This document shows, piece after piece, positions 30,637-35,958 of a DNA stretch of 40,222 nucleotides. The DNA is from a virus (Duplodnaviria > Heunggongvirae > Uroviricota > Caudoviricetes). Each line of letters opens with the position of its first letter. Within the stretch, counting starts at the first letter, position 1. The stretch is from IMG/VR virus record IMGVR_UViG_2778261638_000008; one strand, given 5' to 3'. Under the pieces are notes generated by a model that ran no database searches, was not told the DNA's origin, and worked only from the letters and a program-made list of their open reading frames with translations. The translations under genes and the position numbers were made by a program.

Positions 30637-31938
30637 ATGCCAGACGTTCACGCACAACTTTCTCCATCATCAGCGCATCGATGGATGCGCTGCCCAGGAA
30701 GTCTGGCGCTGGAGGCCACACAACCGGATAAAGAAACAACTTTTGCAATCGAGGGCACTGCAGCGCACGCGCTTGCTGAAAAAGTTCTACGAAACAGGCA
30801 AAGCCACCCGGAACACTACGCCGGATGCAATGTTTCTATGTTTCTCGGCTCATACCCCCTTCGCGAAAATCCTGATGATACATCTGGCCCACAGGTGGAT
30901 GATGAAATGGTCGAAGCCGTCGGCCGGTATGTTGATACGGTCTGGACTCTTGCAAAGAATAATGAACTATTGGTTGAACAACGTGTTGATTTCTCACATA
31001 TAACGGGTGTGGAAGAATCTTTCGGAACTGCCGACAGCATAATCATTGCTGGTAGCGAATTACAAATCCACGACCTGAAATATGGCAAAGGCGTCCGCAT
31101 TGATGCAGAACAAAATGAGCAACTACAACTGTATGCTCTGGGTGCGCTCGAACAATTCAGCATGCTGTATGACTTTGAGACTGTAAGATTATTTATTCAC
31201 CAGCCAAGGCTCAACCACGTTTCAGAATGGTCGTTAACCGTGCAGGAACTTCAGTCTTTCGGTAAGCGAGCACAGGAGGCCGCAACCAGTGCGATCCTTG
31301 TTCTCAATATTGCTGAATGCGAAGGCATTGAGACACTACCGCTGGAAAACTTCATACCTGGAGAAAAACAGTGCCGCTTCTGTAAAGCAAAAGCTATTTG
31401 CACTGCCCAGAAAATGCAGCATTTACAAACAGCGGCCAGCGATTTTGAAGATCTGACAAAGCCTGTCAGCGAAATAATCACCAATGCCAGCGCACGTGTA
31501 CCTCTGTTAACCATTGAGCAGCTTGCGGAGATCTATAGCCAGGCCGACTTTATTGAATCCTGGCTAAAGGCAGTACGAGACCGGGTTCACAATGAACTCA
31601 ATGCCGGACATCCGGTACCGGGGTTTAAACTGGTAACAGGAAAACAAGGTAACCGGGCCTGGAGTGATGAAGAGGCAGCTCGCGCACTTCTGAAGGACCA
31701 GTTCAGGTACAAAACTGAAGAAGTATTCGACTTTAAACTTATTAGCCCCACAAAAGCCGAAAAACTTATCAAAAAGGCCAGTCCGCGCCGTTGGTCAAAA
31801 GTCGAGGCACTGATAACACGAGCTGATGGTAAACCCACCATCGTTCCCGAGTCAGACCCACGCCCCGCACTCAATATCAACCCTGTAAATGATTTCGACG
31901 ACGTATCCGACGATACGCTAACCGCAGACCTCATCTGA
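30637..31938 (+). CDS. PD-(D/E)XK nuclease, DUF2800-like (Cas4/RecB-like with C-terminal Cys cluster)
   Basis: 433 aa; N-terminal [15 protein letters not shown] signature and [10 protein letters not shown] cysteine cluster. Confidence 0.6.
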
Positions 31939-31953
31939 TTTAAGGAAATACCC

Positions 31954-32502
31954 ATGAAACTGAAGCTGAACAATGTTCGTCTGGCCTTCCCGTCTCTGTT
32001 TGAAGCTAAAACTGTAAACGGCGAAGGCGATCCGCGTTTCTCCGCAGTATTTTTAATGTCTCCCAAACACCCACAACTGGAAGAAATCCGTAAAGCTATG
32101 AAGCAGGTAGCGAAGGAAAAATGGGGAGAGAAGTGGGAGCCCATTTATAGTCAGCTGGAGAAAAAACTCAATCTGTGCCTGCATGATGGTGATGAAAAAG
32201 CAGAGTATGAAGGCTTTCCCGGCAATTTCTTCCTGAACGCTGCTAACAAAGCGCGCCCAGCTGTTCTTGATCGCGATCGTTCGCCACTAATTCTGGCTGA
32301 TGGACGTCCCTATGCAGGGTGCTATGTAAACGCCGTTATCGATATCTGGGCACAGGACAATAATTTCGGTAAACGCATTAATGCCTCACTCGGCGGAGTC
32401 CAGTTCCTGCGAGACGGCGATGCATTTGCTGGCGGCGGAGTGGCAAGCGCTGACGATTTCGACGATATCAGCGAAGGTGCTGACGCGGGCGAGTTGATTT
32501 AA
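31954..32502 (+). CDS. DUF2815-like phage single-stranded DNA-binding protein
   Basis: 182 aa with acidic C-terminal tail (DDFDDISEGADAGELI) typical of SSB partner-binding tails; follows DUF2800-like gene. Confidence 0.55.
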   Translation: MKLKLNNVRLAFPSLFEAKTVNGEGDPRFSAVFLMSPKHPQLEEIRKAMKQVAKEKWGEKWEPIYSQLEKKLNLCLHDGDEKAEYEGFPGNFFLNAANKARPAVLDRDRSPLILADGRPYAGCYVNAVIDIWAQDNNFGKRINASLGGVQFLRDGDAFAGGGVASADDFDDISEGADAGELI

Positions 32503-32512
32503 GTTCATCGCA

Positions 32513-32552
32513 AACACGCCATTCTAAGTTTATGAGTGGCGTGTTCTTATTA
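32513..32552 (+). terminator. Intrinsic terminator after SSB gene
   Basis: 9-bp stem AACACGCCA / UGGCGUGUU (extendable) followed by CUUAUUAAUU; lies between convergent genes. Confidence 0.6.
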
Positions 32553-32553
32553 A

Positions 32554-33084: not shown

Positions 33085-33106
33085 TTAATAACTCCTAAGG
33101 TTAAGT

Positions 33107-35170
33107 ATGCATAATATACTATGGGGCGACCTGGAAATCTATTGCGAAATACCTATCACGAATGGTACACACGCTTATGCGGAAGGTGTCGAGGTGATGC
33201 TGTTCGCCTGGGCCATCGGCGACGAGCCGGTTAGCGTCTGGGATCTGACTGCTGGCGAACCTATCCCCGGCAGGCTGCGGAAGGCCATCGCTGACCCTGA
33301 CACTATTCTGTTTTTCCACAATTCACATTTCGACCGCACGGTACTGCGCCATGCAATGCCAGAGCTGGCACCCGATGTCACCCGCTGGCGAGACACAATG
33401 GTGCAGGCGCTGGCGCACGGTCTCCCGGGGTCTCTGGGGGAACTCTGCGAAATACTCGGCGTCCCGCAAGACAAAGCGAAGGACAAAGAAGGTAAAGCGC
33501 TGATCCAGCTGTTCTGTAAGCCCCGCCCGAAAAACAGCAAACTGCGCCGGGCCACCAGCAAAACCCACCCGGAAGAATGGCGGCGCTTTGTTGCTTACGC
33601 CGGACTTGATATCGAGGCAATGCGCGAAGTCTATAAACGTCTGCCGAAGTGGAATTATCAGGGGACAGAACTGGCGCTCTGGCATCGTGATCAGCAGATC
33701 AATGACCGGGGCGTCTGCATGGACGTGGAACTCGCACGCGCTGCGATCGACGCGGTAGACCAGGAACAAAAGCGCCTGGCAAAGCGTACACAGGAAATGA
33801 CTGATGGCGAAGTGCAGGCAGCCACACAACGAGACGCGTTGATTAAGCACATTGTTGAATCCTACGGTGTGGAGCTACCAGACATGCAACGCAGTACTCT
33901 GGAACGTCGTATTGCCGACCCCGATTTACCATCTGCCGTGAAAGAACTGCTGGCTATCCGCCTGCAGGCCAGTACTACCAGCACCAGTAAATACAAGGCA
34001 CTGATGAAAGGCGTAAGCCACGACGGGCGCTTACGCGGTACGCTACAGTTCTGCGGGGCGTCACGTACCGGTCGTTGGGCCGGACGGCTATTCCAGCCCC
34101 AGAACCTTCCCCGCCCTTCACTAAAACAGGAACAAATAGACGAAGGCATCGAAGCACTGAAAGCCGGATGTGCAGACCTGCTGTTTGACAATATCATGGA
34201 ACTAACCAGTTCAGCGTTACGTGGCTGCATTATCGCGCCAACAGGCAAAAAGCTGGTGGTAAGTGACTTGTCGAACATTGAAGGCCGTATGCTGGCATGG
34301 CTGGCGGGAGAAGAATGGAAACTGAATGCATTCAGAGAGTACGACGCCGGAACGGGTCCGGACTTATATAAACTGGCGTATGCAAAAGCTTTCGATATTG
34401 CACCAGATGATGTTGATAAACACATGCGTCAGATCGGTAAAGTCATGGAACTCGGTCTGGGTTATGGTGGTGGTGTGTCGGCCTTCATCACTTTTGCACT
34501 GGTTTACGGTCTCGATCTCGACGAGCTGGCGAACGCCGCACTACCAAACATTCCCCGCAATGTTATCCGCGAGGCGAAAAGCTGGTACGACGAATCGGTT
34601 AAACGCAAGTCAACCTACGGGCTTTCTGAACGGGTATTTATCGCCTGCGACTCACTTAAACGTCTCTGGCGCCGGGCGCATCCCGCGACCTGTGATTTCT
34701 GGTACGATCTGGAGCGCACCGTCCGCACTGCAATCGCCACACCGCAAAAAACATTGTATTGCGGTTATCTTAAAATCCGCCGCGATGGCGCGTGGCTGCG
34801 CATACAGCTACCATCCGGACGCGCTGTATGCTACCCGTCTCCGGTTATCGAAAAAGGGAATATCACCTACATGGGGGTTAACTCTTATTCGCGTAAATGG
34901 CAACGACTCAAAACCTACGGCGGAAAGCTGGTGGAGAACATCACCCAGGCGGCCGCCCGCGACATTCTGGCCGGAAACATGCCGCTTATCGAAGATGCCG
35001 GTTACAGCATTGTGCTGACGGTACACGACGAGGTGATCACCGAAGCACCTGACACAGAAGATTTCAACGATAAAGCGCTTTCCGCACTTCTCTCCACTAA
35101 CCCCGAATGGGCGCCCGATATCCCACTGAACGCTGGCGGTTTTGAGGCGTACCACTACCGTAAGGATTAA
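33107..35170 (+). CDS. Family A DNA polymerase with N-terminal 3-prime to 5-prime exonuclease-like domain
   Basis: 687 aa; Pol A motif A ([14 protein letters not shown]), motif B ([14 protein letters not shown]) and motif C (VHDEV). Confidence 0.85.
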
Positions 35171-35175
35171 CTCCT

Positions 35176-35391
35176 ATGTCATTTAAATACCGGGACAATC
35201 CACTTTATTACAGGGCTGCAAGGGAAGCTTTGCGACTTGAACAATCCGGCGAATATGACCGGGCAGCGGAGGTCTGGGCAAAAGCCAACCGCGAATCACA
35301 TCACGAACTGAATCAGGAATGGAGTGAACGCAGATCTGATTTTTGCCTGATGCAGAACATGCGTGAAAAGCGTAAGGCGGTCGAAGAATGA
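35176..35391 (+). CDS. Hypothetical small protein (71 aa)
   Basis: ORF coupled to the following gene (ATGA overlap). Confidence 0.45.
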   Translation: MSFKYRDNPLYYRAAREALRLEQSGEYDRAAEVWAKANRESHHELNQEWSERRSDFCLMQNMREKRKAVEE

Positions 35392-35687
35392 TCGTTTACG
35401 TTGCCGGGCCGATGAGCGGTTACGAGCAATTTAACCGCCCGGCCTTTCATTCCGCAGCAAAGAGGCTAACGGACAAGGGATATGTTGTGCTTAACCCCGC
35501 AACTTTACCCAATGGTTTGACACAGGCTCAGTACATGGACATCTGCCTCGCAATGCTTCGCTGTGCCGATACGATTTATATGCTCAAAGAGTGGGAGTAC
35601 TCTGCCGGCGCACGTGCAGAAAACGCGTTGGCAGAGAAACTGGAATTAAATGTGCTTTTTGAAGAGTGGGATTCAGATGGCCTATGA
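35388..35687 (+). CDS. DUF4406-like protein (nucleoside 2-deoxyribosyltransferase-like fold)
   Basis: 99 aa; N terminus MIVYVAGPMSG and KEWEYSAGARAENALAE match remembered DUF4406 pattern. Confidence 0.55.
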   Translation: MIVYVAGPMSGYEQFNRPAFHSAAKRLTDKGYVVLNPATLPNGLTQAQYMDICLAMLRCADTIYMLKEWEYSAGARAENALAEKLELNVLFEEWDSDGL

Positions 35688-35958
35688 ACGTGAAAGCCTT
35701 ATCGAAAAGCACCTCGTCGCTGAAGTGAAAAAAGCTGGCGGAGTGGCCTTTAAGTTTGTATCTCCCGGTCACCGCTCGGTACCGGATCGCATTGTCCTGC
35801 TACCAGGTGGTCGTATCGTTTTCGTTGAATGTAAATCTCCCGGCAAGCCACCACGGCCTGACCAGTTGCGCGAACATGAACGTCTGCGAAAGCTGGGCTT
35901 TACCGTGGTGGTACTAGATAGCAAAGAGCTGGGGGGAATTATTCCCCCCAATACTTAG
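35677..35958 (+). CDS. VRR-NUC domain nuclease
   Basis: Motif SVPDRIVLLPGGRIVFVECKSPGKPPRPDQ matches VRR-NUC PD-(D/E)XK signature; likely start is ATG at 35677 rather than track start 35650. Confidence 0.65.
   Translation: MAYERESLIEKHLVAEVKKAGGVAFKFVSPGHRSVPDRIVLLPGGRIVFVECKSPGKPPRPDQLREHERLRKLGFTVVVLDSKELGGIIPPNT

Follow-up and report, generated by a model that had tools for sequence, protein, structure and literature searches.

Probable halves of one replication kit of known type on either side of the immunity region of an Escherichia coli prophage

The window analyzed here is the whole 40,222-nt stretch of IMG/VR record IMGVR_UViG_2778261638_000008, an E. coli prophage of the Caudoviricetes whose end adjoins the host gene yfhL (39962-40222). 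Its replication genes form two arms, one on the cI side and one on the cro side of the immunity genes (Table 1). An earlier note on this DNA had assigned these genes from the sequence alone; its marked span, 30637-35958, reaches only from DUF2800 to VRR-NUC and leaves the SNF2 helicase, the PrimPol-helicase, the origin and the immunity genes outside. All of the genes it named are present and intact. Pfam and PHROG searches confirmed its entire list of cI-side domains, including the PolA, DUF2800 and DUF2815 assignments, and Pfam Prim-Pol and VapE-like matches bore out the PrimPol-helicase on the cro side.

Table 1. Features of the early region and the integration end, with the evidence for each assignment
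Feature	Coordinates	Strand	Evidence
Q-type antiterminator	24501..24923	-	Pfam Phage_antitermQ E=5e-42; next downstream of origin in cro-side operon (context)
Replication origin	25055..25242	.	Nine GGAACCRC iterons, two opposed sets around an (AT)7 run
Initiator/primase/helicase	25212..27398	-	Pfam Prim-Pol 1e-9, VapE-like 2e-60; PHROG DNA helicase/primase
Cro-like HTH repressor	27402..27602	-	Pfam HTH_3
CI-like repressor (HTH + S24 autopeptidase)	27744..28418	+	Pfam Peptidase_S24, HTH_26
Cargo gene, 174 aa, between cI and polymerase arm	28837..29361	-	phrog_1244 (unknown function)
Small ORF, 49 aa, hydrophobic C-terminal part	29587..29735	+	Sequence; first gene of polymerase-arm operon
300-aa protein, function unassigned	29732..30634	+	phrog_6784 1.5e-179; phrog_408 3e-5 over residues 194-295
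DUF2800 PD-(D/E)XK (RecB/AdnA-like) exonuclease	30637..31938	+	Pfam DUF2800 + PDDEXK_1 E=4e-110; PHROG 69 exonuclease
T7 gp2.5-type SSB/annealing protein (DUF2815)	31954..32502	+	Pfam Enc34_ssDNA-bd (formerly DUF2815) E=2e-43; PHROG 112; PMC5686142
Cargo gene, 176 aa, hydrophobic N-terminus	32554..33084	-	No family match
Family A DNA polymerase (PolA)	33107..35170	+	Pfam DNA_pol_A + 3'-5' exonuclease; PDB Pol I matches; PHROG 17
PerC/ANR-like small regulator (accessory)	35176..35391	+	Pfam PerC 4.6e-4, under curated cut-off; phrog_2227
DUF4406, minimal NDT/DNPH1-like putative nucleotide N-glycosidase (accessory)	35388..35687	+	Pfam E=6e-34; PHROG 355
VRR-NUC structure-specific nuclease	35650..35958	+	Pfam VRR_NUC weak, E=1e-3; PHROG 93 'endonuclease' E=7e-33
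DUF6338 membrane protein, cargo	36102..36722	-	Pfam 1e-35
SNF2-family helicase/translocase, VRR-NUC partner	36744..38156	+	Pfam SNF2-rel_dom + Helicase_C; PHROG 62
Excisionase-like HTH_17 protein	38153..38353	+	Pfam
Tyrosine integrase	38350..39753	-	Pfam; RefSeq context

The cI-side operon opens with a small ORF, overlapping at its stop with the start of the following gene; in phage vB_EcoM-606R2 (606R2) and E. coli O103:H2 12009, a hypothetical CDS of 150 nt is annotated at the corresponding position. The C-terminal ~100 residues of the 300-aa product that follows resemble the small protein preceding DUF2800 in other phages, and phrog_408 also matches ORF37 of Staphylococcus phage LH1 (2e-36) and the Yersinia phage YeP4 and Paenibacillus counterparts. 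A homolog of the DUF2800 nuclease has been described as AdnA/RecB-like (bioRxiv 10.64898/2026.07.14.737667). Both this nuclease (16 letters, not shown) and the SSB (...DDFDDISEGADAGELI) have acidic C-terminal tails, with a common end motif, (D/E)DF(D/E)D(I/V/L), that is kept in six phages from three phyla. PolA contains the 3'-5' proofreading domain and lacks the 5' nuclease domain. An alignment with four distant homologs shows no change at any of its catalytic residues (D8/E10, N72/F75, Y164/D168, D387, R441/K445 and H640-D641-E642). The true start of VRR-NUC is likely 35677, as annotated in RefSeq relatives. In relatives, the gene always lies directly upstream of SNF2. The Pfam search found no initiator, primase or replicative helicase in this arm, and no iteron-like cluster occurs anywhere in 28400-38400.

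These missing functions are found on the cro side. The cro gene ends 3 nt ahead of the initiator gene, so that the two belong to one operon. In the initiator, an AEP PrimPol domain at the N-terminus is joined to a VapE-type SF3 helicase (Walker A, GPQGCGKSS); the protein shares 72% identity with P3 of the Hamiltonella phage APSE-1 and 73% with the YeP4 'DNA primase'. The iteron origin proposed in the earlier note is likewise well founded: the window contains 14 copies of GGAACCRC where 2.4 would be expected, and 0 of 100 shuffles reached 14. Nine copies are packed into the origin in both orientations around the (AT)7 run at 25110-25123, three of them (25216-25242) inside the final 27 nt of the initiator gene. 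The position of the origin is conserved in 606R2, APSE-1, YeP4 and the IMG/VR relatives, but the iteron sequence differs. Across these relatives, it varies together with the last ~20 residues of the initiator: GGAACCAC in the window goes with ...GKKCKVWEPLEPRGTT, AGACAACC with ...GKQQRVF.., CTGTACCA with ...GKMTRIF.., and GTAACAAC of APSE-1 with ...GKVCRVWERR. This covariation is partly trivial, since the final 27 nt of the gene belong to the array and encode ...PLEPRGTT. In P4 alpha and the Pri-Rep proteins of SaPI/PICI elements, which are also AEP primase-SF3 helicase fusions with cognate iterons just 3' of the gene, specificity shifts together with the C-terminal region.

Accessory genes are interspersed with these components. 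The 174-aa cargo product has no PADLOC match and is only 45% identical to its 606R2 counterpart. The 176-aa product has no match in Pfam, PHROG or PADLOC, and its slot holds a different, 209-aa gene in 606R2 and O103:H2 12009. The slot of the DUF6338 gene is occupied by Dcm and BstA in O103:H2 12009. RefSeq names the PerC-like product 'ANR family transcriptional regulator'; 606R2 has a PDC-S35/TIR gene where the window has PerC and DUF4406. The AF2 model of the DUF4406 protein (pLDDT 88.6) matched NDT, DNPH1, BcmB and MilB in Foldseek (TMq about 0.7) and E78 is invariant; the model suggests an NDT/DNPH1-like fold and a putative activity of the nucleotide N-glycosidase type. Only 5 of 80 related loci have DUF4406, and APSE-1, YeP4 and 606R2 lack it. 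The earlier note had taken it as a possible sign of nucleotide or DNA modification. It is instead an accessory gene, occupying a slot whose content varies, and does not count as evidence of DNA modification.

Near-identical prophages have already been deposited. The yfhL-side prophages of O103:H2 12009 and ETEC H10407 and the induced phages 606R2, 689R2 and 611R5 share 96-98% nucleotide identity with the window over the region, and at least 80% of 27400-40222 is present in about 40 of 5426 complete E. coli genomes. The polymerase arm of 606R2 is 95-99% identical to that of the window, whereas its DUF5906-type helicase domain and AGGTGACGG iterons are non-homologous, indicating that the two halves evolve as separable units. 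The same split layout is found in APSE-1 (Sendosyvirus) and YeP4, in the order int-(xis)-SNF2-VRR-NUC-PolA-gp2.5-like SSB-DUF2800-P53-like protein, repressor, and cro-PrimPol/VapE-iterons-Q-lysis. Each of their components is 55-75% identical to the window protein, and their iteron clusters lie at the same position with other sequences (GTAACAACC in APSE-1 and TAGACAACC in YeP4). Differences are present, too. APSE-1 PolA carries an HNH/intein-like insertion that the window PolA does not have, and the APSE-1 virion is of the P22-like podovirus type with a tail needle and tail spike, whereas the window encodes Baseplate_J, a sheath-like DUF3383 protein and a tail collar, i.e., a contractile tail. 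One early region is joined to two kinds of virion, in agreement with the mosaic genome suggested earlier.

More distantly, the same six core proteins occur at 27-56% identity in siphoviruses of Firmicutes and Bacteroidota and in Enc34/Chi/Nazgul-like phages. As in the window, VRR-NUC directly precedes SNF2 and the iterons directly follow the VirE/PrimPol gene. However, these phages carry all six genes on the same strand, and their primase-helicase gene stands after PolA and before VRR-NUC, whereas in the window the primase-helicase and origin stand behind cro, across the immunity region. Annotations and tblastn gave the order DUF2800-DUF2815-PolA-...-PrimPol/VapE-VRR-NUC-SNF2 for Paenibacillus phage TonyLawson77, Staphylococcus phage LH1 and Bacteroides phage F4, each with an iteron cluster directly after the VirE gene. 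This one-operon layout in three phyla-distant phages indicates that the initiator and origin cassette is part of the same module and was relocated in the present lineage. A duf2800-gp2.5-polA module has already been described (PMC8093625), and the replication module of Enc34 comprises primase, polymerase, VRR-NUC and helicase (PMC5686142).

Gene order and co-occurrence were examined in 80 IMG/VR loci (PolA 41-97% identical), which are the top-scoring ones among at least 595 hits rather than a random sample. Within this set, the order DUF2800-SSB-PolA-VRR-NUC-SNF2 never varied, and the 53 loci having all five genes agreed in order and strand (53/53). Of the 51 loci with enough flank, 49 have a primase-helicase accompanying the PolA block. 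VapE-type matches lie upstream of the block on the opposite strand in every case (26/26). Another type, either PrimPol+PriCT_2+D5_N/DUF5906 or PriCT_2+AAA_25, adjoins the block in 23 of the 25 loci without a VapE match, downstream of SNF2 in one locus (L048); the other two (L027 and L066) have no recognisable primase-helicase within their flanks. The protein database contains at least 7917 PolA homologs. The top 120, encoded on chromosomes of Klebsiella, Enterobacter, Citrobacter, Salmonella and Yersinia, are at least 87% identical, and the gene is present in 162 of 5426 complete E. coli genomes. To call a family A polymerase uncommon in temperate enterobacterial phages was therefore an overstatement.

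The earlier note had also spoken of two independent replication modules. On such a reading, PrimPol-VapE and its iterons would direct theta replication with host Pol III, and the cI-side arm would be a second, self-contained module gained by mosaicism. The halves do lie in separate divergent operons, the helicase domain and iterons of one are exchanged in 606R2, and homologs of the primase-helicase occur in 13-kb streptococcal satellites. In P4 and SaPI/PICI satellites, a primase-helicase and iterons alone replicate with host Pol III, and P4 alpha and SaPI Rep need no phage polymerase; the cro-side half could thus work without the polymerase arm. These elements depend on the host polymerase, whereas an initiator and a phage polymerase arm stand together in 49 of the 51 related loci that have enough flank. 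From the cI-side arm, initiator, primase, replicative helicase and origin-like repeats are all missing, and phages of Firmicutes and Bacteroidota have this arm and the primase-helicase side by side in a single operon. We consider two independent systems very improbable.

Rather unlikely, too, is a cI-side arm devoted mainly to recombination and repair as a counterpart of lambda Red. In that case, DUF2800 and the gp2.5-like protein would act as an exo/bet pair, the filling of gaps, late (recombination-dependent) replication and the rescue of forks would fall to PolA, VRR-NUC and SNF2, and host Pol III would perform the bulk of origin-dependent synthesis behind the PrimPol-VapE helicase. The arm occupies the lambda pL position, from the repressor gene to xis/int, and the DUF2800 fold is like that of the AdnA/RecB end-resection nucleases. 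DUF2815/gp2.5 has been classed as a single-strand annealing protein paired with duf2800 (PMC8093625), and Pfam and PHROG identified no PolA processivity factor on the cI side. Against this, the same gene set has been named a replication module in virulent Enc34/Chi-like phages of 40-60 kb (PMC5686142), and the proofreading and polymerase motifs of PolA are intact and conserved across phyla.

Most probably, the genes of the two divergent early operons constitute a single replication-recombination system. Each operon supplies what the other lacks, with no function in common: the cro side alone has the primase, helicase and origin, and the cI side alone the polymerase, SSB and nucleases. The cro-side operon would supply initiation, with PrimPol-VapE probably binding the GGAACCRC iterons that start in the 3' end of its own gene, melting the adjacent (AT)7 core, loading itself as an SF3 helicase and laying primers; transcription from cro to Q passes through the origin. 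The cI-side operon would supply all post-initiation steps through its proofreading polymerase, SSB/annealing protein and DUF2800 exonuclease, and PolA rather than host Pol III would copy the bulk of the phage DNA; the VRR-NUC-SNF2 pair may process branched or stalled intermediates. The T7 replisome likewise combines a family A polymerase (gp5) with a gp2.5-type SSB whose C-terminal tail is acidic and contains an aromatic residue. As in the case of T7 gp2.5, the acidic tails of the SSB and DUF2800 probably dock both proteins onto the polymerase or helicase. Unlike in T7, a second protein, DUF2800, bears the same tail as the SSB, and the primase-helicase is AEP plus SF3, whereas T7 gp4 is DnaG plus DnaB-like. 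Taken together, the cI-side and cro-side arms are most likely two halves of a single, well-known phage replication kit that complement each other, divided as in APSE-1. Since the same split kit already occurs in that aphid-symbiont phage, its presence in an E. coli prophage is real but ordinary.

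The polymerase arm of this E. coli prophage lies between the repressor gene and the integrase and runs in the same direction as the repressor. Repressor and cro form a divergent pair, and cro is followed by the primase-helicase, the iterons, and Q, in that order. Pfam and PHROG searches recovered every domain named in the earlier note (DUF2800, the DUF2815 SSB, PolA, DUF4406, VRR-NUC, SNF2, and PrimPol-VapE). The span of 30637–35958 given there covers DUF2800 to VRR-NUC only, and the other named parts lie outside it. The DUF2800 nuclease and SSB genes are adjacent (30637–32502), with the polymerase gene downstream of the SSB; VRR-NUC precedes SNF2, with a 621-nt opposite-strand cargo gene between them. 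The exonuclease and polymerase motifs of PolA are intact: D8/E10, Y164/D168, D387, R441/K445, and HDE640–642 are invariant when its catalytic residues are compared with those of the Yersinia, Paenibacillus, Staphylococcus, and Bacteroides phage homologs. A sequence comparison of PolA with the PDB detects relatives only among the bacterial Pol I enzymes.

Features of the two arms and their surroundings (positions in the window)
Feature	Position	Strand	Remarks
Q antiterminator	24501–24923	-	intergenic region separates it from PrimPol-VapE
Iteron cluster	25055–25242		nine GGAACCRC copies in 188 bp, between PrimPol-VapE gene end and Q
(AT)7 run	25110–25123		iterons in opposed sets about it
Three iterons within ORF	25216–25242		last 27 nt of PrimPol-VapE ORF
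PrimPol-VapE fusion	25212–27398	-	728 aa; directly after Cro-like gene
Cro-like gene	27402–27602	-
CI-like repressor	27744–28418	+	upstream of polymerase arm
orf174	28837–29361	-	interrupts polymerase-arm operon
17-nt direct repeats	29379 and 29413		two copies
Terminator-like hairpin	29499–29526	+	just upstream of small ORF
Small ORF	29587–29735	+	opens polymerase-arm operon
300-aa protein	29732–30634	+	no function assigned
DUF2800 PD-(D/E)XK nuclease	30637–31938	+	Pfam E=4e-110
Acidic tail of nuclease	31885–31938
DUF2815/Enc34-type (gp2.5-like) SSB	31954–32502	+	Pfam E=2e-43
Acidic tail of SSB	32449–32502
orf176	32554–33084	-	hydrophobic N-terminus; interrupts polymerase-arm operon
Family A polymerase	33107–35170	+	3'-5' exonuclease domain; Pfam DNA_pol_A + exo1
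PerC/ANR-like protein	35176–35391	+
DUF4406	35388–35687	+	Pfam E=6e-34
VRR-NUC	35650–35958	+	weak in Pfam; E=7e-33 in PHROGs
DUF6338 membrane protein	36102–36722	-	interrupts polymerase-arm operon
SNF2 helicase	36744–38156	+
Tyrosine integrase	38350–39753	-	prophage end
Host yfhL	39962–40222		adjoins integrase

The earlier note interpreted the two arms as independent replication modules. This reading is not supported. The arms complement each other in content: polymerase, SSB, and nuclease are missing from the cro arm, and among the polymerase-arm genes there is no initiator, primase, or replicative helicase. The single primase-helicase of the module is PrimPol-VapE, on the opposite arm and not between PolA and VRR-NUC. 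A repeat search of 28400–38400 returned only scattered matches of two to three copies, hundreds of bases apart; with no origin-like repeat cluster in the polymerase arm, the idea of another origin or initiator there was rejected. In three distant phages, Paenibacillus phage TonyLawson77, Staphylococcus phage LH1, and Bacteroides phage F4, the six core genes lie on one strand as DUF2800-DUF2815-PolA-(small genes)-VirE/PrimPol-VRR-NUC-SNF2, each homology being confirmed by tblastn. The primase-helicase and its iterons are therefore a normal internal member of the module. A lambda-type O/P module was also considered and rejected: only PrimPol-VapE lies between cro and Q, and the cro-side operon has no Pfam families of O-type initiators or P-type DnaB loaders.

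The same association is seen among related IMG/VR loci, sampled as the best 80 of at least 595, with PolA 41–97% identical to that of the window. Gene order and strand are the same in 53 of the 53 loci that carry all five polymerase-arm genes, and VapE-type matches lie upstream on the opposite strand in 26/26, with none between PolA and VRR-NUC. Nearly all of the 25 loci without a VapE match have an ORF of 650–870 aa next to the block. Pfam searches with ten of these ORFs identified nine as other primase-helicases (PrimPol+PriCT_2+D5_N/DUF5906 or PriCT_2+AAA_25), and 14 further ORFs were assigned to this class by similarity to the nine; in the flanks of two of the 25 loci no primase-helicase was recognized, and in one locus the gene is downstream of SNF2. 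This is a D5_N-type gene (L048:13874–16003). In a set of distant relatives (loci L057, L058, L064–L069, L077, L082, and L084), a PriCT_2+AAA_25 primase-helicase is located on the same strand, upstream of DUF2800. Given these varied positions, the initiator has at least four placements relative to the polymerase block. To date, duf2800-gp2.5-polA has been described as one module (PMC8093625), and the Enc34 replication module as consisting of primase, polymerase, VRR-NUC, and helicase (PMC5686142). For annotators, the correction is that PrimPol/VapE with its iterons and DUF2800-SSB-PolA-VRR-NUC-SNF2 are best read as halves of one replisome, even across an immunity region.

P4 alpha and the SaPI/PICI replicase cassettes can run on the host polymerase alone. 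Dependence between the halves thus seems to run mainly one way: a primase-helicase is needed by the polymerase arm, and could itself work without that arm. A rival explanation regards the polymerase arm as a Red-like recombination or repair arm, rather than one with a truly replicative PolA. A preprint (bioRxiv 10.64898/2026.07.14.737667) presents a DUF2800 homolog as an AdnA/RecB-like nuclease whose C-terminus is disordered. Both the DUF2800 nuclease of the window and the SSB end in an acidic (D/E)DF(D/E)(D/N)(I/V/L) tail, which in the SSB of the window reads ...DDFDDISEGADAGELI. Homologs from APSE-1, YeP4, and the Paenibacillus, Staphylococcus, and Bacteroides phages retain this motif, which thus spans gammaproteobacterial, Firmicutes, and Bacteroidota phages. 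The acidic tail of T7 gp2.5 contacts the polymerase and the primase-helicase (PMC5686142). By analogy, the shared motif looks like a gp2.5-like docking tail placed on two different proteins, and the SSB and the nuclease probably dock on a common replisome partner, a mechanism open to testing.

The iteron origin that had been proposed on the cro side is taken as real. The window has 14 copies of GGAACCRC where 2.4 would be expected; no shuffle gave as many, and nine of the copies are clustered. Together with an AT-rich segment, this cluster adjoins the initiator gene, which is the layout of an iteron-type origin. PrimPol-VapE is taken as the initiator, which would bind the iterons. The iterons inside the ORF encode ...PLEPRGTT, so that either the origin sequence sets part of the protein tail or the tail sets part of the origin. 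Every relative examined has an iteron cluster at the same position, each with its own repeat: AGGTGACGG in vB_EcoM-606R2, GTAACAACC in APSE-1, TAGACAACC in YeP4, ACTGCAACA in the Paenibacillus phage, TGATGCAACA in LH1, and GGTAAACG in F4. When about 20 related contigs are compared, the last ~20 residues of the initiator and the dominant 8-mer vary together; five C-terminal variants each have their own iteron, and identical C-termini go with identical iterons. As indirect support for iteron binding, this covariation is partly trivial, since the end of the ORF lies within the array, yet the differing residues reach upstream of the overlap. An iteron "code" that differs by lineage, with initiator C-termini to match, offers a ready-made set for the study of origin specificity.

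The two arms on either side of the immunity region were correctly observed and well annotated, and this layout is already known. APSE-1 and YeP4 have the same map, int-SNF2-VRR-NUC-PolA-gp2.5-like SSB-DUF2800-P53-like-repressor-cro-PrimPol/VapE-iterons-Q, with proteins 55–75% identical to those of the window, and near-identical deposited E. coli prophages represent it as well. Indeed, complete E. coli genomes, those of O103:H2 12009 and ETEC H10407 among them, have prophages at this site that match 27400–40222 with 96–98% identity, and about 40 of 5426 such genomes contain 80% or more of the region. Among induced phages, vB_EcoM-606R2, 689R2, and 611R5 are further close relatives; a literature search on the vB_EcoM-606R2 family found no paper, and one on APSE replication gave no directly useful result. 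The virion genes of the window are of the contractile-tail type (Baseplate_J, a DUF3383 sheath-like protein, and a tail collar), whereas the APSE-1 virion is P22-like, with tail needle, tail spike, and scaffold. A placement in Sendosyvirus (APSE) was thus rejected, the window having no P22-like podovirus module. The early region has accordingly been combined with different structural modules, and the suggestion of a mosaic genome is upheld. The APSE-1 polymerase gene, P45 (L003:28827–31808), exceeds that of the window by ~900 nt and has an HNH endonuclease ORF annotated inside it. Some PolA homologs of Jersey-like Salmonella phages are annotated as intein-containing; the window PolA has no such insertion. 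PolA had been called uncommon in temperate enterobacterial phages. It is a minority feature, yet not a rare one: the protein database has at least 7917 homologs (the best 120 are at least 87% identical and come from many genera of enterobacteria), 1653 phage records have a match, and 162 of 5426 complete E. coli genomes carry the gene.

DUF4406 had been considered a possible sign of nucleotide or DNA modification. A PDB sequence search found no match even at E=10, so the fold was obtained by structure prediction and fold search. The confident AF2 model (pLDDT 88.6) has a predicted flavodoxin-like NDT fold, and its best 45 Foldseek PDB matches are nucleoside 2-deoxyribosyltransferases (NDT), DNPH1/Rcl dNMP hydrolases, and the CMP N-glycosidases BcmB and MilB (TMq 0.61–0.73, probability 1.00). 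S72, G74, and E78 are invariant among 27 homologs, and by its S-x-G-x-x-x-E motif E78 is a putative counterpart of the catalytic glutamate nucleophile of DNPH1/NDT. A nucleotide N-glycosidase-type activity is plausible. Three papers mention DUF4406, and by their titles they appear to be surveys of genomes, prophages, or domains. DUF4406 is absent from APSE-1, YeP4, and 606R2, and is found in only five of the best 80 of at least 595 loci; in 606R2 its slot has a TIR-domain PDC-S35 gene. It is an accessory gene and by itself says nothing about modification of virion DNA.

Three opposite-strand genes interrupt the polymerase-arm operon. At or near the same slots, 606R2 carries PDC-S35/TIR (L001:13962–14723; PADLOC 1e-108), and O103:H2 12009 carries a Dcm methyltransferase and BstA (L002:12668–14613; 2.5e-110 for BstA). 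A PADLOC scan gave no match for the cargo genes of the window, DUF4406, the PerC-like protein, or orf300, the matches being confined to cargo of the relatives (PDC-S35 and BstA). Given the cargo of the relatives at these slots, it is reasonable to propose the three genes as candidate new genes for defence or counter-defence. A weak match to phrog_408, the family of the small protein preceding DUF2800 in LH1, covers the C-terminal ~100 residues of the 300-aa protein, which could therefore be a seventh conserved component of the module. Ahead of the operon, a hairpin GCCCGCCTCAAGTGACGGGC, which the pattern scan did not list, is followed by TTTTTT, and two direct repeats read CT(A/G)TAGGGGTA(A/C)AGAGA. 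Hairpin and repeats may form a regulated leader or operator region. A sigma-70 promoter scan of 27300–30000 found fewer sites than in shuffles and was uninformative.

The 606R2 polymerase arm is 95–99% identical to that of the window. Its initiator (L001:3738–5999) is 62% identical to PrimPol-VapE in the N-terminal PrimPol part and non-homologous from about residue 325, where DUF5906 takes the place of VapE, and the iterons become AGGTGACGG. By sequence comparison, this is a domain-level swap of helicase and origin inside an otherwise 95–99% identical early region. Since the helicase half and the iterons are replaced jointly, the initiator-origin cassette is an exchangeable sub-module, a sign of partial autonomy. 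A broader and rather speculative proposal, which we consider unlikely as a whole, is that the polymerase arm would be a helicase-agnostic elongation core into which cassettes of at least three helicase families (VapE SF3, D5_N/DUF5906 SF3, and AAA_25 RecA-like) plug with their own iteron codes. The DDFDD(I/V) tail would then serve as a generic coupling device, and the position of the cassette behind cro would tie origin specificity to the immunity region. If this is true, immunity and replication specificity would be exchangeable together, and such joint exchange could, for example, keep co-resident prophages from interfering with one another or guard against hijacking satellites.
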